Assembly: GCA_965116885.1 (NCBI GenBank)
Contig: OZ220741.1
Coordinates: 224,001-288,000 of the forward strand
Direction: 5' to 3'
Origin: Candidatus Latescibacterota bacterium
Lineage (GTDB): Bacteria > Latescibacterota > UBA2968
DNA length: 64,000 bases
Of the stretch, positions 8,223 through 44,367 are shown piece after piece (within the stretch, counting starts at the first letter, position 1; every line of letters starts with the position of its first letter). The position numbers and the translations under genes are program-made. Under the pieces are notes generated by a model that made no database searches, was not told where the DNA came from, and saw only the letters and a list, made by a program, of their open reading frames with translations.

Positions 8223-9311
8223 CTATTCCCACACCACACGCGGCCCATCCACATAATCCAAAAAGCGATTTGCAATATCGGCCTGCGCCGTATCCTCTGT
8301 GTGAACAATCACGCGCCAGCGAAACGTCATCGACTCGCCATCGGACAAATGGTGATCGGGCTTGAACATCCAGCAATTGGGCGCGAACAACCCATAGCCT
8401 CGCACATGCCATGTGGTTGGATATCGGAAATTCTGCGGATGATCAAAAATGGCAAACCCGGCCACCTCATCGCCCACCGGGCCGTAGTAATCCATCCAGT
8501 GTGAAGGCAGCGACCAGCACCCCGTCTCATCCGTCGCACCATAGGCATTGCGCATCTGTCCATCGGCACTGGCATTCATCGACGGATTCACGCGAATACA
8601 CAAAAATCCACCCTCCTTCGTATCCCCAATCGTCACCGCACCGTGAGAAGCCTTGAGCGTCAGCGCAATATCCAAAACCGCGGCATCTCGCCCCGAATCG
8701 TACAACCGATACCAACGACTATCACTCATCAACGCGCGGTCGCCTTCATACCACGTATTTTCCGAAGCGATCACAAGAGACAATGGATTGTGCAAAATAG
8801 AAATATCATCCTGCGCCGTGCGCCCATATCCCGGTTGGTTGGGCCGCTCATTCCAGCAATCCACCCCATTTATAGCCCCCTGCATCAGGGTCAACCCCCG
8901 CTGCCAGGGATGTTCTCCCTCCCCCCATGCCGCCATCGGCTCACGCAACATATTGGTCCCATTCGGCGTTAAAATCGGATTGATAACCGGCTTGGGATAA
9001 TCCGTCGCATGGTGAAACGTCATAAACGGCGAACCCGAAAGAGAAACACTGAGTTTGCCATCGGCATCGTGCGACGAAATCCCCGCAGCCGCATCTGCGC
9101 TATCCAATGCCAACACCTCAAAACTCGCTTCCTCCCCCCCGTCCAGCGCGGGCAGATTGACGTGATACACAGGCGCAGACGGATCGCGTTCGGCAATCAG
9201 CACCTCACCTCTACCCTTCAACTGCAACAACGGAGCCTCACATCCCTCTGGAGCGGAAAAACTCGCCAGGTGCGCCGGACGAGAACGCGGAATTGAAAGC
9301 GTCAATTTCAT
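8223..9311 (-). CDS. PmoA-like (DUF6807-type) family protein; not a true methane monooxygenase
   Basis: KP.I.P...P.G, EHPWQRGL, DTKEGG, DHP.N.RYPT.WHVRGYGLF motifs. Confidence 0.75.
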   Translation of the reverse strand: MKLTLSIPRSRPAHLASFSAPEGCEAPLLQLKGRGEVLIAERDPSAPVYHVNLPALDGGEEASFEVLALDSADAAAGISSHDADGKLSVSLSGSPFMTFHHATDYPKPVINPILTPNGTNMLREPMAAWGEGEHPWQRGLTLMQGAINGVDCWNERPNQPGYGRTAQDDISILHNPLSLVIASENTWYEGDRALMSDSRWYRLYDSGRDAAVLDIALTLKASHGAVTIGDTKEGGFLCIRVNPSMNASADGQMRNAYGATDETGCWSLPSHWMDYYGPVGDEVAGFAIFDHPQNFRYPTTWHVRGYGLFAPNCWMFKPDHHLSDGESMTFRWRVIVHTEDTAQADIANRFLDYVDGPRVVWE

Positions 9312-9405: not shown

Positions 9406-9421
9406 TGCAAACACCGTGCCA
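9406..9421 (-). promoter_or_regulatory. Sigma54 -24/-12 promoter for the PmoA-like gene
   Basis: Minus strand TGGCACGGTGTTTGCA matches TGGCAC-N5-TTGCW, ~95 nt upstream of the start. Confidence 0.75.
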
Positions 9422-20713: not shown

Positions 20714-22159
20714 TCATCTCCTCAAATTTACCCAACGCTGGTATTTATCGTGATCAAATCGATCGCGCAGTGGTCCAAGATGCGTCTCGATCAAATCCCG
20801 GCGAACCGACTCAAGCTCCGCATCTTCCACCAGATTATTCAACTCATCCGGATCGGCTTCCACATCATACAATTCAACAGGCCTCTCCGAAACCGATTCC
20901 ACCCCGAGTTTATACCGCCCGTCAAACACCATCGTATGGCCCAAAACCTCGCTAATAACAGCATCCTTCCCCCTCTGCGCCCCCTCTGCATTGACCCCCG
21001 CTTGAACCTGTGAAACAAGAGACTGCCCATCGGTCTGCAAAGGTTCGGCATCCGCAATATCAACAACAGAAGCAACCACATCAATCACATCGGTCAACGC
21101 CCTGGTTTGCCAACCCCGCGTACCTCCTGGCGGGCGCACAATCAGGGGAACGCGAACAGACGCATCGTAAAAAACGATCTTATTATACAACATATGATCG
21201 CCCAGCATCTCGCCGTGATCGGAGTTATAAATAACCCATGTATTATCCGCCTGACCAGATTCCTCAAGCGCGTCGAGCATCTCGCCAATATAGTGGTCAA
21301 TAAGCGTAATCTTCGCAAAATAATTAACCATCATAATTTGCTTTTGCTCAACCGTCATACCCGACAAATTCTTACTCCTCTGCATCCGTCGAACATTCAG
21401 CGGAACGGGCTCATCCGGCGCATCCATAATACCCGCGGGCATATCCCCGGGATCGTACAAATCCCGGTACTCCTGCGGAGAATCAAACGGATCGTGGGGA
21501 CCGGGACAAAGAACCTGCAAATAAAAAGGCTTATCGCCCTTGTAATCGCGAATCCAATTCGCCGCAGTGCGCCCCGTATAACTATCCAGATGCGCCTCGG
21601 TAGGCAATGGACAGGGAGGTTCCTCCCACGGCTTGAGCGTCCCACTTTGCCAGGGAATGCGAAAATCATTGATAAATTTTCGATGCGTCTCCAACAGACC
21701 CATCTCTTCGAGATAATCGGTATAAGGCGAACTGTGTCTTCCCGAAGCAATCGGACCGTGAAGCTCGTGCGGATCGTCAAACCCCCACGCATTGAGCACA
21801 TCGACGCGATCTCTGCTATGCGAAGCCGGAACCCCGCCGTGAAGATAGAGATGTGACTTCCCGATCAAAGCCGTGTGATAACCCGCATCGCGCACCTGAC
21901 GCACATGACTGGGACCTTCACAATCGGCATCCTGATCATTTGCCCACAGCCCGTGCTCGCGGGGATACAGACCGCTCATCATAGATGCGCGAGACGGCAT
22001 ACACAGCGGACAATTGGTATAACACTGCGTATAAGTAACACTCTCAGACGCGAGGCGATCCAGATTCGGCGTCTTAACCACCGGATGCCCAACACAGCCC
22101 ATCGCATCGCCGCGATGCTGGTCGGAAAAGATATAGAGAATATTGGGTTGATCAGCCAT
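20714..22159 (-). CDS. Sulfatase
   Basis: PNILYIFSDQHR, CMPSR, GKSH, SDHGEMLGDH. Confidence 0.93.
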   Translation of the reverse strand: MADQPNILYIFSDQHRGDAMGCVGHPVVKTPNLDRLASESVTYTQCYTNCPLCMPSRASMMSGLYPREHGLWANDQDADCEGPSHVRQVRDAGYHTALIGKSHLYLHGGVPASHSRDRVDVLNAWGFDDPHELHGPIASGRHSSPYTDYLEEMGLLETHRKFINDFRIPWQSGTLKPWEEPPCPLPTEAHLDSYTGRTAANWIRDYKGDKPFYLQVLCPGPHDPFDSPQEYRDLYDPGDMPAGIMDAPDEPVPLNVRRMQRSKNLSGMTVEQKQIMMVNYFAKITLIDHYIGEMLDALEESGQADNTWVIYNSDHGEMLGDHMLYNKIVFYDASVRVPLIVRPPGGTRGWQTRALTDVIDVVASVVDIADAEPLQTDGQSLVSQVQAGVNAEGAQRGKDAVISEVLGHTMVFDGRYKLGVESVSERPVELYDVEADPDELNNLVEDAELESVRRDLIETHLGPLRDRFDHDKYQRWVNLRR

Positions 22160-31632: not shown

Positions 31633-33999
31633 TCACTCGTGCCGAAGGGCATTGACAGGATGATCAGTTGCCGCGCGATAGGTTTGAATACTGACTGTAA
31701 CCGCCACCACAATGAGGGTTAGCACGCTACCCAATATCATGGGCAGAATCAAATCAATCCGATATGCAAAGACCTGTAGCCACGCACTTAAAGCGTAATA
31801 AGCGATAGGCCATGCAATCACATTTGCCAGAATGACCCACTTGATAAAATCTTTGGAGAGCAATACCATTAACTGGCTAACTGAAGCCCCCAGGACTTTG
31901 CGAATACCGATTTCACGATTTCGTTGTGTCATAAAAAGTGTGGTTAAACCAAAAGCACCAAGGGATGCCAAAAAGAGAGCGAATATAGCAGAGAAGCGGA
32001 TGGTGCTGAACCAGCGTTGGTCCTTTCTGTATTGCCTGTCGATATCGTCTTTGAGAAATCGGTATTCTAATTTGGTTCGAGGGACAAGTTGTTGCCATTC
32101 TTTTTCGAGAATGGCAATGGTCCCGGGGATATTGTCAGGAGAAATTTTGACGAGTAAATAGCCATCTATCTCAGGGTCTAAAATAATTGCAGCAGGTGCG
32201 ACGGTATGATGCAAAGACCGAAAATGAAAATCTTTGACAACGCCAATAACCGTTGGAGACCCCTTGCTTTTCCAGCTTGAGAGCGTCTGTCCTGCACCAT
32301 TTTTCCAGCCTAAATGTTTGACAAACGCCTCATTGACAATGAGCGCGTTGGTTTTGTCTCTTGTCCTTGAGAAATCCCTCCCTTCAAGCAACTTGAGATT
32401 CATCATTTTGACAAAATCATATCCTACATAGATTAATTCTGTTGTAAAACGCTCTCCTTCAATGTCAAAAGTGCGGCGACTCCGAGTCCTATTGCTCAAA
32501 ACATGTCCAACCGTGGTAGTACCAATAATCTGAGGGTAGGTAGCAATTTTGTCTTTATAAGCATCTATTGAAGTGGGCGAAATTTTTTGTAGATCAAAAG
32601 TTGAAATTACTACGACGTTATCTATATAGAGTCCCAGATCCTTATTTTTCAGGAAGTCGATTTGCCTTGTCATCGTGAATGCACCAATGAGTAGCATCGT
32701 CGAAAGTGCAAATTGAAGAATGAGCAGTATCCGGATTAAAATTGTAGGTTTTAAGGATGCTATTCTCGCACTCAAAATTTCAATGGTTTGAAAACGCGAT
32801 AATACCAGGGCAGGATAAAAGCCAGAGACCATCCCTATGGTTAGGGTCAGAGCCAATACATATAGCACGGTGGTTAGATCAACGTATTTTAAGGCAAGCT
32901 CTTTGCCCATCAGCGCGTTAAACATTGGCAACATCAATTCGACGAGCGCGAGGCCCAATATCAGAGCAAGGAAGGATAGAATAATGGATTCACCGAGATA
33001 TTGGCCGATTAATTGCTGCCGATGCGCGCCAAATAACTTGCGAATGCCGACTTCTTTGCTCCGCGTTGAAGAGATACCTATGGTCAGGACGGAAAAATTG
33101 GTGCCTGCTACGAGGATGATGATCAATGCAATGCCAGTAAGTACATAAGAATAGATGGGATTGCTGACTGGCTCAGGTCCTCGGACACTTTGATCGAAGT
33201 GTATCTCTTTGAGCGGTTGTAAGAAGAATTGGAGTGGCCTGGGATACCCGGCCTGGTCTGCCAGGGTCTTGCCAACCTCTGGGAGGCGATCTTTTACTTG
33301 CTGAAGCGCCATTGCTTTGGGGAGCATGACAAAAGTGCTGATGCCGCCTGTAAAATGCCATGTGTCGGGATGTGCTTCCGAGGCAGCTTCAAAGGGAAGA
33401 AGGCCATCGAATCGCAGACTGGAATTTTTGGGAATATCTTTTAGAATACCGGAAACAATATGGTCTTTGCCCTTTGGTGCCGGACTTCCACCTATAGACA
33501 TCCACTGTGTTGGACGTAAGGTAATCATCTGTCCTATGGGATTGGTGTTGGGAAATAATTTCTGAGCCGTTTCTTGTGTGATGAGAATTGATTGTACGTC
33601 ATGTAGCGCGGCAGTGCCACTAACAAGCGGAAATGAAAAGATGTCTAAAAATTCGGGGTCAACATATCTTAATTCAAGTGAAAAGGAATTTTCTCCTTTT
33701 ACGGCGTTTCCCCGACTGCGATAGGCGCGAACGATTTTTAAGCCAGCAAATTCATTTGCAAAAGCAGGTCCCAAAGGCCCCGGTGTGATGGCATTGATGC
33801 GGTTTCTGGATTTCAGGCAAATTCTGTAGATATGATCCATATTTTCGTGAAATCGGTCGTAGGTCCATTCGTTATGCACGAATAATAGTCCGAGAATGCC
33901 AAATGCCAGCGCGATGGATACACCAATGATATTGATCAAGGTAGTTAATTTATGTTTGAAAAGGCTCCTGAGTGCCAGCACGATGTAATTACGGATCAT
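31633..33999 (-). CDS. ABC transporter permease (MacB/FtsX type, duplicated domains)
   Basis: M.RNY...ALRSL.K, R.KEVGIRK..GA and REIGIRKVLGAS, C-terminal PV.ALRHE. Confidence 0.9.
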   Translation of the reverse strand: MIRNYIVLALRSLFKHKLTTLINIIGVSIALAFGILGLLFVHNEWTYDRFHENMDHIYRICLKSRNRINAITPGPLGPAFANEFAGLKIVRAYRSRGNAVKGENSFSLELRYVDPEFLDIFSFPLVSGTAALHDVQSILITQETAQKLFPNTNPIGQMITLRPTQWMSIGGSPAPKGKDHIVSGILKDIPKNSSLRFDGLLPFEAASEAHPDTWHFTGGISTFVMLPKAMALQQVKDRLPEVGKTLADQAGYPRPLQFFLQPLKEIHFDQSVRGPEPVSNPIYSYVLTGIALIIILVAGTNFSVLTIGISSTRSKEVGIRKLFGAHRQQLIGQYLGESIILSFLALILGLALVELMLPMFNALMGKELALKYVDLTTVLYVLALTLTIGMVSGFYPALVLSRFQTIEILSARIASLKPTILIRILLILQFALSTMLLIGAFTMTRQIDFLKNKDLGLYIDNVVVISTFDLQKISPTSIDAYKDKIATYPQIIGTTTVGHVLSNRTRSRRTFDIEGERFTTELIYVGYDFVKMMNLKLLEGRDFSRTRDKTNALIVNEAFVKHLGWKNGAGQTLSSWKSKGSPTVIGVVKDFHFRSLHHTVAPAAIILDPEIDGYLLVKISPDNIPGTIAILEKEWQQLVPRTKLEYRFLKDDIDRQYRKDQRWFSTIRFSAIFALFLASLGAFGLTTLFMTQRNREIGIRKVLGASVSQLMVLLSKDFIKWVILANVIAWPIAYYALSAWLQVFAYRIDLILPMILGSVLTLIVVAVTVSIQTYRAATDHPVNALRHE

Positions 34000-34263
34000 A
34001 AATATGCCTCCGGTTGATGGGGTTCCCTGCCAGAAAGCAGAGAACCCTTTATAGATCATCCGAAGATAATGCTATTCACATTTAGAATAGGCAAGCAATA
34101 TTCTCCTTTGAAAGAGAAGTCCGGTGCTTCAGATCGCCAGGGTAATGAATCAATTGATGTCCACTGGATGAGCGCAGATTGTGGTTTATCAATAGAAAAG
34201 ACCAAGGCTATGCACACAATGCCAAATGCACAACCTGTCATCCGAGGCCATTTCAATAAGAAT

Positions 34264-34467
34264 TCAAACAATCTCATAAACTTGCCCTTCAGAAAACGCC
34301 AGTGCCAAGCGGATAGAACTCGAACCACTTCCAAATTCGAGAATCCTTTCTACTGTGGGCATCTGAAGAAACGTGGTTGCGATTCTCTCAAATGCTGTCT
34401 CACCAATGCTCCAGTCTGTGTCCAGATGAAGCCGATCCGGTATTTTGAAGTCTAAAATTTTATGCAT
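34264..34467 (-). pseudogene. Truncated class I SAM-dependent methyltransferase fragment
   Basis: RBS AAGGA; 67-aa ORF contains motif I RILEFGSGSSS and then stops. Confidence 0.55.
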
Positions 34468-34484
34468 TCCTTACTTCTCTTGAT

Positions 34485-34718
34485 TTAATAGCCGTCATGT
34501 GCAAATACGTACACATACCAGGAGGCCTGTTCTGGTCCTATCCCATCAGGAGGAGCTTCACAACCCCAAATTTCAGCGAGTCGAGCCTCTTCTTCCTGGG
34601 CTTCTCTTTTAGAATTATAATGACCAACAATTCTCCAGTTTCTGAATGAGCGGTATCTGGATCGCCAATGTCGCTTTCGCTCGTCGGGATCCATAGTAAT
34701 GCCAACTCTACAGGCCAT
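34485..34718 (-). CDS. Small hypothetical protein, possibly GIY-YIG-like
   Basis: 77 aa; VGIT.DP.ER...H-like and S..EA..EE..L patterns; closely spaced in the operon. Confidence 0.6.
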   Translation of the reverse strand: MACRVGITMDPDERKRHWRSRYRSFRNWRIVGHYNSKREAQEEEARLAEIWGCEAPPDGIGPEQASWYVYVFAHDGY

Positions 34719-34735
34719 CTTTATCTCTTTATGAT

Positions 34736-36172
34736 TTACGAGGTTATTTCCAGACTATATCGTCGCTGCAACAAAGACGCATCGGCTTCTGCAATCTCCA
34801 TACACATTTCCATCGCCAATTCATAGCGATAGCGCGTCTGTTCACAAGAAACTGGATTTGGATACATCGGATCACCCGTTGTCGTCCGCGCCTCCCAAAG
34901 ACACCCGCCACCACACAGGTTGCGCGCCCAGCACGTCTTGCACTCAGGACGATTATTCACATTGAACTGCGCGTCAAAATGCTGCTGCTTTGCGCGGTCA
35001 ATACCCGCAAACACATTCCCCATCTTAAACTCGGGTGCATCGGCCAAACTCGAACAAAAATAAATCGACCCATCTGCTGCAATCGCCAAATACTGCTTAC
35101 CACCGAGGCATCCATGACAAGATTTCTTGCGCGTCAAAAGTTTTTGAATCCGTGGATCAAACTCTTCATCTTCACCCTTTTCGCCACTTAAAATAGCTTT
35201 GAGCGCACGCTGGCTCCGCTTGTAAATTTGCTGCTTCAAAACAGGTATGTGTTCTTCCCCAATCGCATAAGGCGCATCGGGGGAGACAACAGCCAGGTCA
35301 ACAAGCGCGTTATCAGTACCCAGAGAACGCAACGCATCGGCAATCTGATCTTCATCCATATCATAAGCTGTCATAACAGCCTGCAAATACACGCGCTCAG
35401 GTGCCTCAGCAGTCAGTTTCTTTACATTCTTTGCCACAACATCATAAGTCCCAGAACCATTGTGAAACTTGCGAATGCGATCCTGTGTTTTACGCCCCCC
35501 ATCCAGGCTGACCTTAATCTGAAACTTTTCATCAACCAAAAACTGCTTCATCTCGTCGGTCAACAGCGTGCCATTGGTCACAATGCCAAAACCAACCTGC
35601 ACACCCAATCGCGCTCCCAGGGATTTGGCAAACGGGACAAGCTCTCTCATCAATGGAAAATTCAGAAGCGGTTCCCCGCCAAAAAAATCAATCTGGCACC
35701 GCCCAAACCCCTGAGCTTCAGTGACAATCCAGCGTATGGCTTGCTCGGCAACTTTGGGTTGCATCAGCATGGCCTTACCGCCATAATCCCCGCCATGAGC
35801 AAAGCAATAAGCACATTGAATATTGCACGTATGGGAAACGTGCAAGGACACCTGCAAACGGTCTGTCTGCGACACGCCACAGGCAGCTACCCCTTCTGTT
35901 GTCGGTACATTAGCTACTACAGGTAGTGCACCATCCGAAATCAAACCCACCTGCGCCAATTCGCCGATAGCCTGAGCAATTTCTTCTGCCTCGTATTGAT
36001 CAACCAATACTTGAACAACCTGTGAAGCCGACAAGCCCTCACAACACTCTAAAATCGCCTCGAAAAGGGTATCCAGTTCAAAAAACAGACCTGTCTCAAC
36101 CTGATAGACAATCGGCTGTTTTTGCTCCTCGGTTTCAAAAAGATGCATGTCACATTTCTGAATGCACAGCAT
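34736..36172 (-). CDS. Radical SAM/SPASM peptide maturase with an N-terminal RRE-like domain (QhpD/CteB-like)
   Basis: CNIQCAYC, FFGGEPLLN, TNGTLL, SLDG; SPASM C..G......DG.IYFC and CKTCWARNLCGGGC; ~80-aa N-terminal extension. RBS GAGGAG. Confidence 0.92.
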   Translation of the reverse strand: MLCIQKCDMHLFETEEQKQPIVYQVETGLFFELDTLFEAILECCEGLSASQVVQVLVDQYEAEEIAQAIGELAQVGLISDGALPVVANVPTTEGVAACGVSQTDRLQVSLHVSHTCNIQCAYCFAHGGDYGGKAMLMQPKVAEQAIRWIVTEAQGFGRCQIDFFGGEPLLNFPLMRELVPFAKSLGARLGVQVGFGIVTNGTLLTDEMKQFLVDEKFQIKVSLDGGRKTQDRIRKFHNGSGTYDVVAKNVKKLTAEAPERVYLQAVMTAYDMDEDQIADALRSLGTDNALVDLAVVSPDAPYAIGEEHIPVLKQQIYKRSQRALKAILSGEKGEDEEFDPRIQKLLTRKKSCHGCLGGKQYLAIAADGSIYFCSSLADAPEFKMGNVFAGIDRAKQQHFDAQFNVNNRPECKTCWARNLCGGGCLWEARTTTGDPMYPNPVSCEQTRYRYELAMEMCMEIAEADASLLQRRYSLEITS

Positions 36173-36196
36173 AGCACACACTCCTCAAAACCGAAA

Positions 36197-36391
36197 TCAC
36201 TTATCCTGATCATCAGCTTGATCAAAATCGTCCCAATCGTCATCGTCATCGGGAAAGGGTAAGAGAGGAACGCAGAAGACACCGGGGTAACAGCTACCAA
36301 TTTCAAAACTCCTCGTAGCCTGATACATAAGAATACCACCTTCTTCATTCATCGTTCCATTGATCAAGGTCAGCTTGCTCTGGGTCACCAT
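36197..36391 (-). CDS. Putative RiPP precursor peptide, 64 aa
   Basis: MVTQSKLTLINGTMNEEGGILMYQATRSFEIGSCYPGVFCVPLLPFPDDDDDWDDFDQADDQDK; RBS AAGGAG; lies between a sigma54 promoter and the rSAM gene. Confidence 0.78.
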   Translation of the reverse strand: MVTQSKLTLINGTMNEEGGILMYQATRSFEIGSCYPGVFCVPLLPFPDDDDDWDDFDQADDQDK

Positions 36392-36447
36392 ATTTCTCTC
36401 CTTAAACAATGCGAAAATCTAATGCCGTTACTGTCCGCCTATCATAC

Positions 36448-36463
36448 TGCAAGTTCCGTGCCA
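36448..36463 (-). promoter_or_regulatory. Sigma54 promoter of the precursor/rSAM operon
   Basis: TGGCACGGAACTTGCA, a perfect TGGCAC-N5-TTGCA. Confidence 0.85.
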
Positions 36464-36479
36464 AAAATCGTTTCAAAAT

Positions 36480-36511
36480 AAAAAAAAGCACTTGAAAATT
36501 CTCAAGTGCTT
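36480..36511 (-). terminator. Terminator downstream of the kinase-activator gene
   Basis: AAGCACTTGA-loop-TCAAGTGCTT followed by a T-run on the minus strand. Confidence 0.6.
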
Positions 36512-36554
36512 GAAAAACAAAGAGATAAAATTTAAAAATTATTTTTATTACAAA

Positions 36555-36690
36555 TGCGACATTCAGATACAAATGTATCTAATATGATACAGTCTAACCA
36601 TTCATTTAAATATAATATGCATAACTGATTGATTTATATAAATATAAACGAAATGTAACCCAAATGATATTACTGTTACAAAATGATACA
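36555..36690. promoter_or_regulatory. Candidate enhancer (UAS) boxes and an IHF site
   Basis: TGTATCTAATATGATACA, TGTTACAAAATGATACA and two degenerate copies; minus-strand AATCAATCAGTTA (36622-36634) fits WATCAANNNNTTR. Confidence 0.55.
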
Positions 36691-36702
36691 CCCGTTCAAC
36701 AT

Positions 36703-39700
36703 CTATCTCAACCCCAAACGATTGATCTTTCTATATAAGCTAATGCGTGCCACCCCCAGTTCTTCGGCCGCATGCGTAATATTACCCTCGCATCTCTCGA
36801 GTGCGTTCCGAATCAACCGTCTCTCATACTCTTGCATAAGATCTTGTAAACGCCCCTGGTATTCAGTAGAGACATCTGACACTTTGTGCCCAACAGCTTC
36901 TGAAAACAAATCGGGTGTAATTGCGCCATCTTCTTCTGCCAAGGCCACAGCAAGCCGAATCTCATTCTCCAACTCGCGCACATTACCAGGCCAATTGTAA
37001 CTTGTGAGCGCCCTGATCGCACCCACTGTCAGCCCTCCAACAGACTTGTTTGCCTCTTCCTTTGCCCGAATGAGCAAATGTTCGGTCAATACTGGTACAT
37101 CTTCAATATGTTCTCGCAAAGGCGGCATATCGATCTGAATCACGTGCAACCGGTAATACAAATCTTCACGGAAAGAACCATTTTCAACTTCTTTTTTTAA
37201 ATCTCGATTGGTCGCTGCAATAATGCGTACATTCACTGTGCGATCCTCTGTTTCTCCCACGCGCCGGATCTCGCCTTCTTGTAATACCCGCAACAAACTC
37301 CTTTGTAACTCTGGCGGGGCATCTCCGATTTCATCTAAAAAAACCGTGCCGCCATCAGCCGCTTCAAAAATCCCCTTATGATCTTCATTGGCACCTGTAA
37401 ACGCGCCTTTTTTGTGCCCAAACAACTCACTCTGCAATAACTCTGGTGAAAGTGCGGCACAATTTTCCGACAAAAATCGCCGGTCTTTGCGTGTGCTATT
37501 GTAGTGTATGGCACGCGCAGCCAATTCTTTACCCGTACCTGTCTCGCCCTGCACAAGCACGGGAATATCACTCTTTGCAGCGCGTTCTATAAGTTGATAG
37601 ATCGCCTGCATCGCATCGCTTTGTCCGACCATGTCGCCAAGCTGGTGCCGTCTTTCGACCTCTTGCTGCAAATATTGTGCCTTCTCTTCCAATTGTTCGT
37701 ACATCTTCGCATTAGCCAGTGCCACCCCCACCAGATTTGCAAATGCCTGTAAAAACGTCTGATCGGCTTCAGAAAATGCGTTGCTGATACCGCGATGATC
37801 CACATATAGCGCACCCATCACACCTTCCTTAACATGAAACAGAGGCACGCACAATACAGACCGAATGTCGTAGTCTATCACACTCTGATAGCGATTGAGC
37901 CTTTCGTCTGACTGTGCATCAAAGCTCAAAACGGGTTTATTGGTTTCAATAACCCCACGAATAATACCCCGACTCAGTGTTTCTGCATCATCTGCTTCTA
38001 CATTGTGGTGGCGCAGGGCATCAACCACAAAGCCTTTTTGGGTCTTATTTTTAATCGCAACAACTACCCGCTCTGCTGGATAAACAACCAACAAATTACC
38101 CAAAGTTCGATCCAATAACACCTTGACATCGCGCTCTGTTGTCAATTCCTGGCTCACATAGTAAAGCAAGCGCAAGCGATCAACAGACAATGTATCAACT
38201 GAAATCTCAGAACTAAGCGCGGCATCATCGCCGCGAGAAGATTTGCCCAATTGATCTAATAACACCTGTGTTTTCTCGAAAAAATAGGACATTTCCATTT
38301 CTCCAAACGCCTGTTTTGCCACTTCGAGATGTGCCTTAGCTCTTGGTACATCATCGCGCTTGAGATAAAACTCTCCTGCCATCAGCAATGCACGCGCCCA
38401 GTGATCGCCTTTGGATTCTCTTCGGCATTCAATCGCCTGCTCAAAAGCCTCTACTGCCTCAGCAGTCCGCCCTGCCTGGGCGAAAGCAACACCAATACCA
38501 GAATAAACCAGGGGCAATATGCCCGTGTACATACCCGATGTTTGTTGCGTACCTTCACTGGCTTTTTCTGCCCATTCAAGTGCAGTTTCCACATCTCCTA
38601 TTCTCACAGCAGCCGTTGCCGCAATCGCATAAGCGCGATAGACATAATCTTTTCGCGGTATTTCCAAAAAACGCTCTGCCGAGGTCTCAGCATATTCCAA
38701 TGCCTCGGCAAAATCACCGTGTTCCAGTGCCAATTCCCCCAAATAAAGAAAACTCACTGCCTCACCATACACAAGTCCTTGCTTCTGCCACTCACCAATG
38801 ACTTCATGGCAAACGGCTTCCGCACGGTTGAGGTCGCCCAGATAAAAATAAACTCTTGTAAGTAAATTAAGTGCCCAAAGGCGATAGTGCTCCAGACCAA
38901 GTTGCCTAAAGGTCTTTACAGCAGTTTCCAAATACCCTTTAGCTATCTCAAATTGAAATCCCACCAATGCAACCATACCTTCTCGCCCTTGTATAAAAAC
39001 TTCATTTTGTGAATCTCCCAGACTACGGCGTTTCTCTATTTCCCGACGCATATACGCAATCGCTTCTTCGTGCTGTCCAGACACATCGCACAACTGAGCC
39101 AAACTACCCAACGCCTGAATTTCGCCCTCGACATCACCCAGACCACTATAAAGTTGTAATGCCTCCAGCATATATTCTTTTGCAATTTCTCCATGTTGAA
39201 GTACAATGTGAATACCACCTTCATTCCACAAAATACGCGCCTTCAAATCGTTCCGGTCATCGGGCAATAACGCCTTTGCCTCGTCTAAAAGTTCCAGTGC
39301 TCTATTATGCTGGCTACAATTGCGCAGTGCATCTGCATAATCGCACAAAAATTCGATCACATCTGCCCGCGATTCAAAAGCGTCATCCGCTGTCCAGTCC
39401 CGTACAGCCTCAAATCGCATCAATGCTTGGCGACAGGCGTGTTGTTCCAGTGCTTTTTTACCTGATAGGCGCATATATTTCACAGCCTTATCTCGTTCTT
39501 TTGCCGCCGCAAAATGATCCGCCAATTCTTCTGTCAATTCTTCTGCATCTTCCGTCTCTTCCAGAGCATTGCCAATTTCACGATGCAACAGACGCCGCCG
39601 CACAGCTTGCATACGATTGTAAATTGCACGACGACACAAACCCTGTGCAAAGCGATACCGCTCTTCATCGCCATAAGTAATTAACAGCCCTTCTGCAATC

Positions 39701-41508
39701 AGGCTATCAAGCACATCCAGCAGTTCCAACTCATCGCCGCGCCAAACCGCAGCCAATAATTCAAAAGAAAAATCACTCAAAAAAACACAGGCGTATTCCA
39801 TTACCTGGCGTTGCACCGCAGAAAGGGCAGTTATGCGCCTGTACAAAACCTCTGAAATGTCATTGGATAACAGGGTCTCGGGAAACTCTCCCCACTGCCA
39901 ATTGCCGTACACATTTTGCCGAACCACATCGGCATGCACCAACGTCCTCACAGCCTCCACGACAAACAGGGATTGTCCACCTGTTTCTTGGAACAGAGTT
40001 TGCAATGCATCAGAAGGTATGGACCGCTCCCCCAACATCGACGCCGCTAAATACCCCACTTCTTCTTGAGGTAGATTTTCCAACTGAATATGAGTCGCCT
40101 CGGCAAATTCATTGCCGTGTATAAACTTTTCAACTTCCTCTGGAAGCAGCTCCAGGTTAGACCATCGGCAAGTCAGGCATAACAAAAATGGACAGGGTTC
40201 TGGATCGCGCAACACATACTGCAAAAATTCCAGGGTCAATTCATCAAGCCATTGAACATCTTCCAAACACAACACAATGGGCTGTTTCTGACGCAGACGC
40301 TTTAATAACTGCAACCAGCGCTCCATAACAGAAAACTTGTCCGTCTCTAATAAATCGGGCAATCCCGCCATCAAATCCGTCGTCTTTACCTGCTGAAAAG
40401 CATCGATCAACGCACCGTATATTTGTCCACCCTCTTCCTGCCCTGCACCTTTCAAACACAGAAAGTCATGGATCAGCGCATCGCCCAAGAGTTCTTCAAT
40501 CAGTCTCGTTTTACCCACTCCAGACTCACCGGAGATCAAAACTACGCGCTGTTTGCCAGCATGTACATCCTGCAAGATCGCACCCAGTATCTTCATTTCA
40601 GATTCCCGCCCAACAAATTGCGGCCGCATAACTTTTCTATGCACATCGCGCTGCTCTTCATTCGGAAGCACCAACTCCGATGGTAAGGCACGCACCAGTT
40701 CCTCTGCCGACTGGTAACGATCAACACGCTCCTTTGCCAGCAACTTCAACACAATTTGTTTCATCTGTTCGGGAACCGCGATATTGACCTGGCCTATTGG
40801 TAGCGGTGACTCTCGAATATGCTTCATAATAACAGATATTGGGTTTTGTCCAGAAAAGGGCGGTGTGTCCGTGAGGACCTCGTATAAAATTACGCCCAAT
40901 GAGTACAGATCTGACCGATGATCCACCCACAAACCCTTACCTTGCTCTGGCGACATATACTCCGCGGTACCAATCGTTGCGCCTGTCTGCGTAATGGAGG
41001 CACTATGTAGATGCCTGAATTTCGCCAACCCCAGATCCAGGATCGTGGTCTCAATCCCCTCTTTTGTCTCCACAACCATAATATTGGATGGCTTGAGATC
41101 GCGATGCACCGCACCCTGCGCGTGGATATAAGCCAACCCCTCGGCAATTTGTTGTATCAAATCAAAAAAGTGAGAAGTTCGAAATTGCCCTAAAAATGCC
41201 TGATCGGCAATTATTTTTTCCAATGTCTTTCCGGGCAAATATTCCATTGTAAAATAGGGACGCTCCTCGGCAAAGCCCCAGGTGTATGTGCGAACCAGAC
41301 GCGGGTGCTGGAATCGGTTCAACACCTGAAATTCTCTGTGAAAACGGCGGCGCACAGCCTGCTCATCCATCATTTCATTCAAAATTTTGAGCGCACACTC
41401 CTCGTCTTGCTCCAGGTCCAGAACCCGATAGACTTCACCCATGCCCCCGGATCCCAGATGTGTCTGGATTTGATATTTGTTGTCGAGAATGGTACCGATT
41501 TCAAACAT
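36703..41508 (-). CDS. Ser/Thr kinase-AAA ATPase-TPR-GAF-sigma54 activator-HTH multidomain regulator
   Basis: GSGGMG, ALK, HRDLKPSN, DLG, YMSPEQ; FVGRE and GESGVGKT; TPR region; GAF (RSVLCVPL); GETGTGKE, GAFTGA, FLDEIG, WPGNVRELEN; Fis-type HTH. Start MFEIG at 41508. Confidence 0.93.
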   Translation of the reverse strand: MFEIGTILDNKYQIQTHLGSGGMGEVYRVLDLEQDEECALKILNEMMDEQAVRRRFHREFQVLNRFQHPRLVRTYTWGFAEERPYFTMEYLPGKTLEKIIADQAFLGQFRTSHFFDLIQQIAEGLAYIHAQGAVHRDLKPSNIMVVETKEGIETTILDLGLAKFRHLHSASITQTGATIGTAEYMSPEQGKGLWVDHRSDLYSLGVILYEVLTDTPPFSGQNPISVIMKHIRESPLPIGQVNIAVPEQMKQIVLKLLAKERVDRYQSAEELVRALPSELVLPNEEQRDVHRKVMRPQFVGRESEMKILGAILQDVHAGKQRVVLISGESGVGKTRLIEELLGDALIHDFLCLKGAGQEEGGQIYGALIDAFQQVKTTDLMAGLPDLLETDKFSVMERWLQLLKRLRQKQPIVLCLEDVQWLDELTLEFLQYVLRDPEPCPFLLCLTCRWSNLELLPEEVEKFIHGNEFAEATHIQLENLPQEEVGYLAASMLGERSIPSDALQTLFQETGGQSLFVVEAVRTLVHADVVRQNVYGNWQWGEFPETLLSNDISEVLYRRITALSAVQRQVMEYACVFLSDFSFELLAAVWRGDELELLDVLDSLIAEGLLITYGDEERYRFAQGLCRRAIYNRMQAVRRRLLHREIGNALEETEDAEELTEELADHFAAAKERDKAVKYMRLSGKKALEQHACRQALMRFEAVRDWTADDAFESRADVIEFLCDYADALRNCSQHNRALELLDEAKALLPDDRNDLKARILWNEGGIHIVLQHGEIAKEYMLEALQLYSGLGDVEGEIQALGSLAQLCDVSGQHEEAIAYMRREIEKRRSLGDSQNEVFIQGREGMVALVGFQFEIAKGYLETAVKTFRQLGLEHYRLWALNLLTRVYFYLGDLNRAEAVCHEVIGEWQKQGLVYGEAVSFLYLGELALEHGDFAEALEYAETSAERFLEIPRKDYVYRAYAIAATAAVRIGDVETALEWAEKASEGTQQTSGMYTGILPLVYSGIGVAFAQAGRTAEAVEAFEQAIECRRESKGDHWARALLMAGEFYLKRDDVPRAKAHLEVAKQAFGEMEMSYFFEKTQVLLDQLGKSSRGDDAALSSEISVDTLSVDRLRLLYYVSQELTTERDVKVLLDRTLGNLLVVYPAERVVVAIKNKTQKGFVVDALRHHNVEADDAETLSRGIIRGVIETNKPVLSFDAQSDERLNRYQSVIDYDIRSVLCVPLFHVKEGVMGALYVDHRGISNAFSEADQTFLQAFANLVGVALANAKMYEQLEEKAQYLQQEVERRHQLGDMVGQSDAMQAIYQLIERAAKSDIPVLVQGETGTGKELAARAIHYNSTRKDRRFLSENCAALSPELLQSELFGHKKGAFTGANEDHKGIFEAADGGTVFLDEIGDAPPELQRSLLRVLQEGEIRRVGETEDRTVNVRIIAATNRDLKKEVENGSFREDLYYRLHVIQIDMPPLREHIEDVPVLTEHLLIRAKEEANKSVGGLTVGAIRALTSYNWPGNVRELENEIRLAVALAEEDGAITPDLFSEAVGHKVSDVSTEYQGRLQDLMQEYERRLIRNALERCEGNITHAAEELGVARISLYRKINRLGLR

Positions 41509-41527
41509 AAAAGCAACCACCGTCAGA

Positions 41528-41564
41528 AGCGGTGTACAACTGGTCAATTTCCAGACCAGTTCAT
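41528..41564. repeat. Family C hairpin repeat in the leader of the kinase-activator gene
   Basis: AGCGGTGTACAACTGGTC-loop-GACCAGTTCAT; related copies at 50585-50621 and 23878-23907. Confidence 0.7.
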
Positions 41565-41584
41565 CAGGATATGCAAGATTAAAT

Positions 41585-41625
41585 GCATGACAAGATATAG
41601 CGTTGTTGCGTAAGGTCAAATATAT
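41585..41625. repeat. 41-bp direct repeat, right copy; promoter-like
   Basis: 40/41 identical to 26492-26532. Confidence 0.85.
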
Positions 41626-41661
41626 ATTTGGGGAATCACCGTCGAAAACATTAGCAGTATA

Positions 41662-41700
41662 AACCAAAAAACCACGCCCAAAGGACGTGGTTTTTTGGTT
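41662..41700. terminator. Intrinsic terminator after the GWxTD gene
   Basis: AACCAAAAAACCACG-loop-CGTGGTTTTTTGGTT. Confidence 0.75.
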
Positions 41701-41770
41701 ATAGACTTGACTCGTTTTAGTCGATAACAGAAATAAATCCACTGGTCGAGACAAAAGTCGAGAAGGTCAT

Positions 41771-44251
41771 TTACTCTACAATCCGAAAATAGACGTATTT
41801 TCTATCCGTCTGCTCAGTTCGCTTGTCCTTCGCCAATACCGTCAATTGATAAATCCCTTCAGGCACCTGGTTCACATCGATCTGCAAATACGTGAAATCA
41901 TCTTCTCGATTGCCTTCGTAATTTGCCGTCACTGTGCGCGTCAAATCGCCATCTTTTGATCGCTCGATCTTCAAGCCCTCAGCGGCGATATGATGAACCT
42001 GCCCACCACTCGTATAAACCCTCGTCTCGCCCCATATATCGCTATCTGCGAATACGCTACTGCCCTCCTCACTATCCGCTGACCAACTGGCCTGCAACTC
42101 CTCGGCAACTATATGATCTATTTGTCCACTCTGCAGATCAATCTCAGTTCTACCCATCGTCTCAATCAGATCTTGAGACGCGAATAATGTGGGCGATAGC
42201 GTATCTATCTCTGGCTTGCCAATGGTGTAGGAGATCTCATACTGCGTGCTGCCAAAATTGTCGCGTTTGAGATCATACAGTTCCAGATAGATAAAGACCG
42301 GTTCAGATGGTGAAAATGTGCGGACGGGATTGGGTGTGATGTGCAGATCATCACGGCTTTCTGGCAATGCTTCCTTCGCTTGAATATCACTGCCGACCAA
42401 CAGATCACTCAGATGAAAGGTCTCATCGCCATAGACATACTGCTTCTCATCGCGTGCTATACCAATGAACCCAGATGTCTGATCCATAAATTCTACTGAA
42501 AAATGATAGCGTCCCTGGGGTACAGACACCTGGCGCGAGACCAACAGGTGATCGTTGCGATGCTTCGCGGCTGCGTTTTGTGCAGGTTTCTGTGGCGGTA
42601 ATGCGAAGGTCCTGGATAGGCGATCATTATACATATCATTCCACTGTTCATCAAAGAAGAAGACGCCATCCCAAAAACTCACCTTGCCCGTTTCAAAATT
42701 TTCTGCTAATCGGTCTTTCGGAATCATATAGCTGAGTTCGACCCGCACGCTGTCTCGTTCTTCAAAGGCGGCGATCTGATGGGGAAGGGTGTATTTGCGA
42801 TCGAGGTAAGGATCGACAAACCGTTGCTCTGTTTTTTTGAATACATTATATGAGGCTTCCCGAAGTGTACGAGGCACAGGAGCAAAGGCTCGTCTCAGCG
42901 TAAATTTAGGATCCCTATCCGCGAGCACCCCAAACTCAGGAAGCTTAGCCCCGAAGTCGTATTGACGGAAAACACTTGCTCCTACAGGTAGGCGCTGGTT
43001 GACACCATACCATGAACCGCCGCAAAAATACCAGCTATCATCCGTAGTGCCACAAAATTTGAACTGAAAGTCTTCGTAATACCAGAATTCCATCATTGCA
43101 GCATCCAGGACCTCTTCAGAATCCCATGTCCCTTTATTGGTTGTCACGCGACGTCTATATCTTCCAAATTTGATATAAGTCTTCCCCATATCCGTCTGCC
43201 AGCCTTCAACATCATCTGAAAATCGCCTGAACCGCAAATTCGAATACGCCATACGACCAAAGTGCTCCATCTTTCTTTCATTAAAATCAGATAAATAGAG
43301 TGGGTCCTGGTGCTTCCAAAACATCTCGCGTTCCAATAGCGCATCTATCGTCTGCGTCGTATCGCGGGGTGCATGATCTTCTTCGGGCACAAGCAGGTCG
43401 ATAGATTCGAGTAACTCGCGTTCTTCAATACTTATCAAGTCAAGGGCGCGTTGATAGTATTCATGCGATTCATCGAATTCGCCAATCTGATAGGCAGCAA
43501 GGCCACAGAATAATAGTGCATTTTTGTCATCTGGGTTGTGCGCGTACAAGTCTTGCATCAAGGTTTGAAACGCATACCAGTCCTCATCTTCAAAGTAGAG
43601 TATGCCCAAAAAATAATAAGGTTGCTGGTTAGCTCCATCCAATTGGATGCTTTTTCGCAGGACCTGCACTGCTTCTTGTTTGGATTCCTCGGCAAAGGTC
43701 TTGAAATCTTTTATCCTATGATTCATTGCCATTTTATCGAAATCTCTGAATATAAGGGATCTCATGTCCATCTCTTGTGATGGCGCTCTTCTATCTTTCT
43801 GTGACAGGAAATCATACACCCAAAACATACCTATACTATTGAGGACATCCGTATTGTTGGGATGCTTTTTCATCACGTTCTTGAATTGGTTCAATGCCCG
43901 AAATCGAAAGCTCTGTGCCCACCAGATTTTCCCGCGTGTCAGCCGATATTCAGCATTGTCGGGATCACTTGCGATTGCCTGCTGTATCATCCGCATTGCA
44001 CGCTGTCGGCCATTCACGCTGTGGTCCAACAGATGCAGTTTGGCCAATTCGTTGTATGCAGGGGCATAATTTCTGTCTTTGGAAATAATCTCCTCGAAAG
44101 CTTTGATGCTTTCCTTCCGACTCACCTGACCAACTTGCTCCAGTGCATCCTGAAACAGCGCATCTATTGTGGTTTCGCCTCTGGACAAGCCAGAACCAAA
44201 GATGCAAAACAACAGTGTAAAACCCGTATAAATTACTGATCCCGCTTTCAT
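41771..44251 (-). CDS. Secreted GWxTD-domain protein with TPRs
   Basis: Signal peptide, TPRs, FWKHQDP...NER..EH..R...S..RF, GWQTDMG.TYIKFG. Confidence 0.87.
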   Translation of the reverse strand: MKAGSVIYTGFTLLFCIFGSGLSRGETTIDALFQDALEQVGQVSRKESIKAFEEIISKDRNYAPAYNELAKLHLLDHSVNGRQRAMRMIQQAIASDPDNAEYRLTRGKIWWAQSFRFRALNQFKNVMKKHPNNTDVLNSIGMFWVYDFLSQKDRRAPSQEMDMRSLIFRDFDKMAMNHRIKDFKTFAEESKQEAVQVLRKSIQLDGANQQPYYFLGILYFEDEDWYAFQTLMQDLYAHNPDDKNALLFCGLAAYQIGEFDESHEYYQRALDLISIEERELLESIDLLVPEEDHAPRDTTQTIDALLEREMFWKHQDPLYLSDFNERKMEHFGRMAYSNLRFRRFSDDVEGWQTDMGKTYIKFGRYRRRVTTNKGTWDSEEVLDAAMMEFWYYEDFQFKFCGTTDDSWYFCGGSWYGVNQRLPVGASVFRQYDFGAKLPEFGVLADRDPKFTLRRAFAPVPRTLREASYNVFKKTEQRFVDPYLDRKYTLPHQIAAFEERDSVRVELSYMIPKDRLAENFETGKVSFWDGVFFFDEQWNDMYNDRLSRTFALPPQKPAQNAAAKHRNDHLLVSRQVSVPQGRYHFSVEFMDQTSGFIGIARDEKQYVYGDETFHLSDLLVGSDIQAKEALPESRDDLHITPNPVRTFSPSEPVFIYLELYDLKRDNFGSTQYEISYTIGKPEIDTLSPTLFASQDLIETMGRTEIDLQSGQIDHIVAEELQASWSADSEEGSSVFADSDIWGETRVYTSGGQVHHIAAEGLKIERSKDGDLTRTVTANYEGNREDDFTYLQIDVNQVPEGIYQLTVLAKDKRTEQTDRKYVYFRIVE

Positions 44252-44351
44252 GTTTTTCTCCGTATCTACCGTGAACCCTGCGAAATGTGATAAAAGCAAT
44301 CGAAATTGCAACTTGAGAGATCACCGCGGCTTTGTGTACGCAAAAATATAA

Positions 44352-44367
44352 AGCAATTTCCGTGCCA
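44352..44367 (-). promoter_or_regulatory. Sigma54 promoter of the GWxTD gene
   Basis: TGGCACGGAAATTGCT; UAS-like boxes TGTCCGATTTTGATACA and TGTCCGAAAATGAACA at 44433-44469. Confidence 0.8.

Follow-up and report, generated by a model that had tools for sequence, protein, structure and literature searches.

Passages of two published accounts (PMC8326336, PMC10114670) describe radical S-adenosylmethionine (SAM) enzymes that join a cysteine sulfur to the C-beta or C-gamma of another residue, among them QhpD, PapB and NxxcB. QhpD makes Cys-to-Asp/Glu thioethers across long loops (same passages), and PapB and NxxcB connect Cys through a C-beta thioether with Asp or Asn (in the passages of PMC8326336). 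The passages of both accounts also cover CteB, which holds the leader of its peptide as a beta-strand on the recognition element (RRE) for peptides that ribosomes make and that are modified after translation (RiPPs); in one SPASM cluster of CteB a site is left open, to which a substrate Cys can bind as a ligand. Further, part of PMC12993501 mentions antiSMASH 'ranthipeptide' and RRE clusters in metagenome-assembled genomes of sponge Latescibacterota, without describing them. Here we study a locus in the genome of a Candidatus Latescibacterota bacterium, within a stretch of 64,000 nucleotides (contig OZ220741.1, positions 224,001 to 288,000) that we call the window. The locus is a sharply bounded 6.8-kb unit of three genes: an activator, a small peptide and a radical SAM/SPASM enzyme with a putative RRE. 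On balance, we favour reading it as a self-contained, sigma-54-dependent RiPP cassette that is ranthipeptide-like and whose product has a single thioether ring.

The SCIFF/thermocellin pairs (ScfA-ScfB; CteA-CteB, structures 5WGG/5WHY) share the predicted build of the cassette enzyme: a putative RRE, radical SAM and SPASM domains with two auxiliary clusters. As in SCIFF, a short peptide gene stands directly upstream of the enzyme gene, the leader is predicted to lie as a strand on the RRE, and there is no dedicated protease or exporter. SCIFF systems are not known to have either in their gene set. The differences are in the peptide, the host and the control: one conserved Cys in the cassette peptide against six within about 45 residues in SCIFF, no match to the SCIFF precursor model, Latescibacterota as hosts and not Clostridia, a giant sigma-54 activator of its own, and several diverged copies per genome.

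Against the model of QhpD, which matures the gamma subunit of quinohemoprotein amine dehydrogenase, the enzyme scores comparably, and QhpD gives a precedent for a ring from Cys34 of the peptide to an Asp in its tail. However, the QhpD-QhpC system differs in that the cassette neither contains nor adjoins genes for dehydrogenase subunits, the substrate would be a stand-alone peptide of 58-64 aa, and distant relatives are without the Asp-rich tail. PapB (freyrasin) and NxxcB belong to the same enzyme clade, but instead of the repeated Cys-X3-Asp known from PapB there is a single Cys followed by a variable loop. In its giant kinase-STAND protein, encoded next to RiPP genes, the cassette recalls the Nif11-type/NHLP systems: the kinase-STAND part of the regulator scores 285 bits against the 'TOMM system kinase/cyclase fusion' model (TIGR03903), below its cut-off of 705.75. 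The cassette peptide, however, has no Nif11 domain, and the output of the regulator is a sigma-54 AAA+ and helix-turn-helix (HTH) module, not a cyclase. By sequence, the cassette can be placed with the radical SAM/SPASM thioether peptides, as a SCIFF-/ranthipeptide-like pair that falls outside SCIFF, QhpD and PapB as their membership is defined. In the literature we found no account of sigma-54 or enhancer-binding-protein wiring of ranthipeptides or radical SAM RiPPs, and the motifs KLTLING, PFPDDD and WDDFD are absent from one supplementary file (601,285 characters) of PMC10288494.

The source genome, 5.56 Mb in one contig, holds three copies of the cassette: the window copy and two elsewhere. 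Another 19 loci come from a scan of one genome per species, all of them Latescibacterota/Latescibacteria. The gene order activator, peptide, enzyme is the same in all 22 cassettes. In locus after locus the DNA homology to the window begins at about 41509 and ends at about 34748, and the flanks are unrelated. The preliminary description had drawn the locus from 34736 to 36463; the elements it named are there, but the conserved unit extends further and also takes in the regulator gene, which lies upstream on the same strand (Table 1). At E <= 1e-40 the enzyme is found in 29 of the 168 genomes of the phylum, and within the genus of the window in 15 of 20, with 1-3 copies each. Across the cassettes the identity to the window copy is 89-94% for the enzyme, 78-83% for the activator and 50-68% for the peptide.

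Table 1. Positions of the features of the cassette and of its downstream additions in the 64-kb window.
Feature	Position	Strand	Description
Regulator (activator) gene	36703..41508	-	1601 aa; Pfam: Ser/Thr protein kinase, AAA_16 STAND NTPase, TPR, GAF, sigma-54 AAA+ activator, Fis-type HTH
Putative activator-binding region (upstream activating sequence, UAS)	36574..36692	-	three dyad-like sites; alignment of 22 intergenic regions
Hairpin and T-run between UAS and promoter	36476..36511	-	11-bp stem, then T-run; terminator-like in scan
Predicted sigma-54 (-24/-12) promoter	36448-36463	-	TGGCACGGAACTTGCA; pattern TGGCAC-N5-TTGCW
Ribosome-binding site (RBS)	36396..36403	-	AAGGAGAG; 4-nt spacer to ATG; GGAG core in 22/22 loci
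Precursor peptide gene	36197..36391	-	64 aa; ATG at 36391, TGA ends at 36197
Predicted RRE-radical SAM/SPASM maturase gene	34736..36172	-	478 aa; Pfam Radical_SAM, Fer4_12 and SPASM above threshold
Open reading frame (ORF) of 77 aa, no family	34485..34718	-	17 nt past the enzyme stop; optional insertion
Methyltransferase-like remnant	34264..34467	-	first 66 residues of 294 aa; tblastn with L009:10660-11544

Sequence comparison supports the small ORF, first noticed for its strong RBS, as a real and conserved precursor-like gene, since it has 85 relatives of 57-83 aa in a large protein collection, its indels come in multiples of three, and its leader and tail are under purifying selection. As anticipated, such a peptide gene precedes the homologous enzyme in every one of the 22 cassettes. 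The peptide has KLTLING at residues 6-12 (KLTLIN in the first reading), Cys34 and Cys40, a variable loop of six residues after Cys34, the stretch VPLLPFP, and an acidic tail in which, as originally counted, 11 of the 17 residues after PFP are Asp. Two cysteines had been proposed for the core. Cys34 is found in 85 of 85 relatives and at all 22 loci, whereas Cys40 is peculiar to the window copy, and the other copies have A, S, G, T or V at this position; the core thus reduces to a single donor Cys. Together with C34, the residues M1, L7, L9, N11, G12, P42, P45, F46, P47, D50 and D54 are invariant among the 85 relatives. Two aromatic residues beside Asp are conserved as well, Trp53 (20 of 22 loci) and Phe56 (21 of 22). 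The distance from the single conserved Cys to the nearest conserved Asp is 14-16 residues.

The peptide family appears to be small and tight. When 1.84 billion representative proteins were searched with a profile, only 14 matched at E <= 0.001. Several of the 14 are the same gene read with a frameshift, and no relatives outside the peptide type of the cassette came up. There was no family match in Pfam or NCBIfam (E <= 0.01), PADLOC or PHROGs and no usable match in the ESM Atlas, which bears out the first impression that the precursor belongs to no named family. A few peptide genes (L045; P0211, P0213, P0215, P0218) read as frameshifted, with leader and Cys/Pro-rich part in different frames; either errors of assembly or decay of the copies may lie behind this.

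Next to these patterns of conservation we calculated the ratio of nonsynonymous to synonymous substitution rates (dN/dS), pooled over pairs of the 22 peptide genes and of 17 of the 22 enzyme genes. Residues 1-20, the leader, have a dN/dS of 0.28 and residues 21-33 of 0.49. For the six residues after Cys34 it is 0.89, and it falls to 0.12 in VPPLPFP and 0.18 in the acidic tail; the enzyme has 0.11. The loop after Cys34 is thus nearly neutral within a strongly constrained frame of leader, Cys34, VPPLPFP and acidic tail. Positive selection on the loop was considered and rejected: since the pooled value does not exceed 1 and dS is near saturation (0.94), we claim only relaxed or near-neutral evolution. 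A diversity-generating mechanism was also looked for, briefly, and rejected: domain scan and homology borders gave no reverse transcriptase or template repeat within the bounded block.

Four other genera have homologous cassettes, whose enzyme is 43-54% identical and is again preceded by a homologue of the activator and a small ORF. In five of seven such distant loci there is a GG-N10-GC element upstream of the peptide. The seven distant peptides have a leader of the hxLhNG type and one Cys, then a Pro/aromatic-rich stretch and neutral or basic tails; the sole core residue that they have in common with the window peptide is Cys34. Both a conserved Cys and a conserved acidic tail had been expected among homologues. 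The Cys is indeed kept, but only one genus-level group has the acidic tail. Further, four of the distant loci (L040, L046, L047, L049) have a second, diverged radical SAM/SPASM-like gene downstream of the enzyme, 24-27% identical to it and best matched by the QhpD model (112-117 bits); it is not found in the genus of the window.

The enzyme gene begins at ATG 36172, preceded by GAGGAG, at the noted distance of 24 nt from the peptide stop, and the radical SAM/SPASM assignment agrees with its domains. The CX3CX2C motif is formed by C116, C120 and C123, and the SPASM cysteines are C355, C373, C411, C414, C420, C424 and C443. In an alignment of 111 homologues C116, C120, C123, C411, C414, C420 and C424 are invariant and C355, C373 and C443 are at least 90% conserved; by sequence this set would be complete for one radical SAM cluster and two auxiliary ones. 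Among solved relatives CteB ranks best (5wgg, E 5.8e-58), with residues 20-454 aligned to 16-446 and the RRE included. Residues 25-72 match PqqD (RRE) with E 0.004 and 17.9 bits, below the cut-off of 23.4, and PF05402 is precomputed for several homologues of the enzyme. In NCBIfam, thioether maturase models rank first: SCIFF maturase (TIGR03974) with 254.6 bits (cut-off 425), Nif11-peptide maturase (TIGR04064) with 251.7 (518.7), QhpD (TIGR03906) with 246.9 (453) and PapB (NF047865) with 223.2 (340).

An anaerobic sulfatase maturase was rejected, in line with the preliminary description. Its model (TIGR03942) reaches 112.9 bits (cut-off 349.45), far below the SCIFF score, and the N-terminal extension of the enzyme aligns to the RRE of CteB. 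The nearest sulfatase gene (20714-22159) lies 12.6 kb away and outside the conserved block.

We also predicted the complex of peptide and enzyme from the alignments of both, with three 4Fe-4S clusters and SAM. The complex score was 0.86, and the best of three controls had 0.01; among solved complexes 116 of 157 attain the mark used, among mismatched pairs 2 of 215. Model runs have at least 70% of contacts in common, and the pLDDT of the partner is at least 53. In the predicted complex, leader residues 5-14 lie on enzyme residues 28-34, and peptide residues 31-44 would touch enzyme residues 354-357, 373 and 422-424, which are SPASM cysteine positions.

The perfect sigma-54 promoter first reported ahead of the peptide gene is where it was described, and GGCAC-N5-TTGC is invariant in the alignment of the intergenic regions of all 22 loci. 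In the 64-kb window the full pattern occurs three times against 0.10 expected, a count reached in none of 100 shuffles. The genome has an rpoN gene (427.9 bits, cut-off 277.35), and the spacing of the -24 GG and -12 GC, the AAA+ activator and rpoN together point to a sigma-54-dependent operon. The other two perfect matches are also on the minus strand: 44352-44367, about 40 nt before the gene of a TPR/GWxTD protein (41771-44311), and 9406-9421, before a 362-aa ORF (8223-9311). The hairpin, with stem arms and T-run largely conserved over the 22 loci, is probably the intrinsic terminator of the activator gene and would insulate the peptide operon from read-through. A search of Rfam over 34000-37000 gave just two chance-level matches, below gathering scores.

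Between the activator stop and the hairpin the 22 loci have up to three dyads of 17-19 bp. In the window, only the promoter-proximal site, TGTATCATATTAGATACA (36574-36591), is a perfect palindrome. The half-sites fall into three classes, each paired with a distinct HTH recognition helix: TGCATCC..GTATGCA with the helix motif GLQKK, TGTAAAC..GTTTACA and near variants with GLHKK, and TGTATC..GATACA, the class of the window, with SLYRK (L014, whose HTH was not recovered, is put in this class by its DNA sites alone). The three cassettes of the source genome are of three different classes, and no class is repeated within any of the seven genomes that have two or three cassettes. We infer that each activator binds the dyads in front of its own peptide operon; as the loci are related, the covariation of half-site and HTH is a lead, not proof.

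The regulator classes are not mirrored in the enzymes. A grouping of enzymes by class was rejected, as the class changes 12 times on the enzyme tree against a minimum of 2, no better than with shuffled labels. The only well-supported pairs on that tree are the window copy with L054, L009 with L012 and L016 with L024 (supports 97/96, 97/94 and 99/97), and each pair comes from one genome and two different regulator classes. Mean enzyme identity is 0.923 within a genome and 0.907-0.909 between genomes, which hints at gene conversion between the copies of a genome.

In the regulator itself the Sigma54_activat domain of Pfam scores 249.4 bits. Its start is probably the ATG at 41508, rather than the TTG at 41754 of the ORF list, because homology to other loci begins at about 41509 and the conserved N-terminus MFEIG stands at residue 83 of the long ORF. 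The 82-codon, TTG-started extension (41509-41754, minus strand) is not conserved elsewhere and is probably untranslated.

Downstream of the enzyme the cassettes vary. The 77-aa ORF, placed between the enzyme gene and a methyltransferase-like gene, is present in 7 of the 22 cassettes (the window copy, L010, L013, L014, L018 and L019 among them), with copies 69-94% identical to each other and no family in Pfam, NCBIfam, PADLOC or PHROGs. This methyltransferase-like gene after the enzyme is full-length by alignment in 9 of the 22; in 4, one of them the window copy, it is cut short, split or left as fragments. Its sole family hint is a TylF O-methyltransferase match with E 0.096. It may be a tailoring gene that is being lost.

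Beyond the borders of the window copy lie genes for a permease, an NHL protein, a glycosyltransferase, a TPR/GWxTD protein and parts of a TRAP transporter. Because the flanks are unrelated between loci, the permease, NHL and TPR/GWxTD genes are taken as chance neighbours. The ADOP/MacB-type permease (31633-34059) was considered as an exporter of the cassette and rejected, being absent from every other locus. Just downstream of some cassettes there are DDE transposase genes (L009:11654-13012, L016:11708-12578). Together with the sharp borders these may point to past mobility of the cassette.

Taken together, these observations are consistent with the following course of events. The activator would sense a signal through its kinase, STAND, TPR and GAF parts, bind the dyad sites upstream and open the -24/-12 promoter. 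A two-gene operon, in the window copy with the 77-aa ORF added, would then be switched on. The putative N-terminal RRE of the enzyme would grip the KLTLING leader as an added beta-strand, so that Cys34 is presented to an auxiliary Fe-S cluster of the SPASM domain. Radical SAM chemistry would bond the sulfur of Cys34 to a carbon in some residue downstream and so close a single thioether macrocycle of a ranthipeptide-like or sactipeptide-like kind. The loop of six residues would be free to vary, and VPPLPFP and the acidic tail would be kept for a role in the product or its handling. We infer the thioether chemistry from the homology of the enzyme; the acceptor residue, the fate of the product and the metal binding first suggested for the tail are conjectural.

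A number of observations weigh against the single-ring thioether cassette. The thioether models rank first, yet every curated cut-off is missed, so that to assume the same function is to extrapolate from an identity of about 30%. It is also atypical to have one donor Cys while the wider family conserves no acceptor, and because the distant relatives lack an acidic tail Asp is not the family-wide acceptor, which weakens the case for a Cys-Asp link. In the complex model the acidic tail (residues 45-64) has no confident placement. As CteB with its leader is already solved, the high score may reflect memory of the CteB-CteA complex; further, our own alignments and the riding ligands are outside the calibration of the tool. 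No conserved protease, exporter or immunity gene was found in the cassettes, which leaves a secreted natural product unsupported.

The state and the expression of the cassettes add to these doubts. The activator gene is interrupted in 3 of the 22 (L013, L014 and L018), by two frameshift-like splits and one large internal replacement, next to intact peptide and enzyme genes; with the decay of the methyltransferase-like gene this indicates that some copies may be losing function. Transcription is hinted at only weakly. In four RNA-library runs of four studies, labelled as sponge or coral metagenomes, there are contigs that match the genes of enzyme and activator at 85-95% likeness, and the contigs of two runs join 34480 to 34749, skipping the 77-aa ORF; the contigs derive from relatives, may include DNA carry-over, and do not reveal strand or starts. 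The low RNA cover over the peptide gene is uninformative because this stretch is too variable to map at 85%.

The alternative that survives best, although we think it unlikely, is that the enzyme modifies the peptide in another way than by a thioether: a C-C or C-O cross-link on Trp or Phe of the tail, epimerisation, or oxidation of Cys34. Such chemistry would sit well with the missed thioether cut-offs and with the presence of only one Cys. Further, WDD and FDQ at the conserved Trp53 and Phe56 resemble three-residue cyclophane motifs, and radical SAM/SPASM enzymes are known for C-C and C-O chemistry, as a passage of PMC10114670 states. However, the cyclophane-type models YhhB and FxsB score 89.8 and 75.6 bits against 223-255 for the thioether maturases. 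Cys34 is the one core residue that is invariant near and far, while the tail with its Trp, Phe and Asp is missing outside one genus, and it is residues 31-44, not the tail, that the model puts in the enzyme.

A second alternative concerns the role of the product: the modified peptide might be the signal for its own activator, read by the TPR or GAF domains, so that the cassette is an autoinduction loop and three cassettes are three channels. Every cassette indeed has its own TPR/GAF-bearing activator, and cassettes within a genome are of different classes in all seven multi-cassette genomes. In Clostridia, to go by the title of Chen et al. 2020, SCIFF-derived ranthipeptides reportedly take part in quorum sensing. 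What makes this doubtful is that the cassette has no exporter, importer, signal or cleavage motif, that the core types of the peptide do not track the regulator classes, and that the activator has no hypervariable sensor segment matching the peptide loop: the lowest 40-residue window has a mean identity of 0.62, and most have 0.75-0.9.

The STAND NTPase, TPR and kinase of the regulator also resemble parts of defence proteins, and PADLOC gives domain-level matches to PD-T4-6 kinases and RtcR-type activators. With a variable peptide in a multi-copy cassette, this could fit an effector triggered by stress or phage, in which an invader is noticed by the STAND/TPR sensor and a peptide, toxic or protective, is induced in response. 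We regard this as very improbable: the PADLOC matches span just the generic kinase and sigma-54 AAA+ domains, peptide and enzyme have no defence-family match beyond the generic radical SAM core of viperins, and the flanks show no defence-island context. We find it hardly credible that the enzyme has another substrate and that the small ORF is there by chance or as a regulatory leader, even if no product has ever been observed and no known family is matched, given the conservation of start, RBS, length and invariant residues in 85 relatives, a dN/dS well below 1 in leader and tail, the constant adjacency to an enzyme with a putative RRE and a complex model that passes its controls.

One may speculate, with little confidence, on the place of the cassette in the biology of its host. 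In sponge- and coral-associated Latescibacterota, the up to three copies per genome, with their different activator DNA sites, might be separately wired, strain-specific peptide channels, in which a freely varying loop of six residues is carried on a fixed thioether/polyproline/acidic scaffold. The near-identical enzymes might then be interchangeable, or even homogenised, and the product would be a recognition or signalling molecule, addressed to kin, to the host or to the TPR sensor of its own cassette, and not an antibiotic.

The finding adds a precursor family that Pfam and NCBIfam do not recognise to the thioether-type radical SAM peptides, from a phylum without cultured members. With its single donor Cys, the short enzyme-peptide pair would be a simple model for the choice of acceptor by a CteB-like enzyme. 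The dedicated sigma-54 activator of 1601 aa, with class-specific DNA sites, would be an unusual wiring for a RiPP and a natural set of mutually insulated sensor-promoter pairs. Finally, because the loop is almost neutral and its frame strongly constrained, the peptide suggests a display-type scaffold, which may be of use for peptide engineering.

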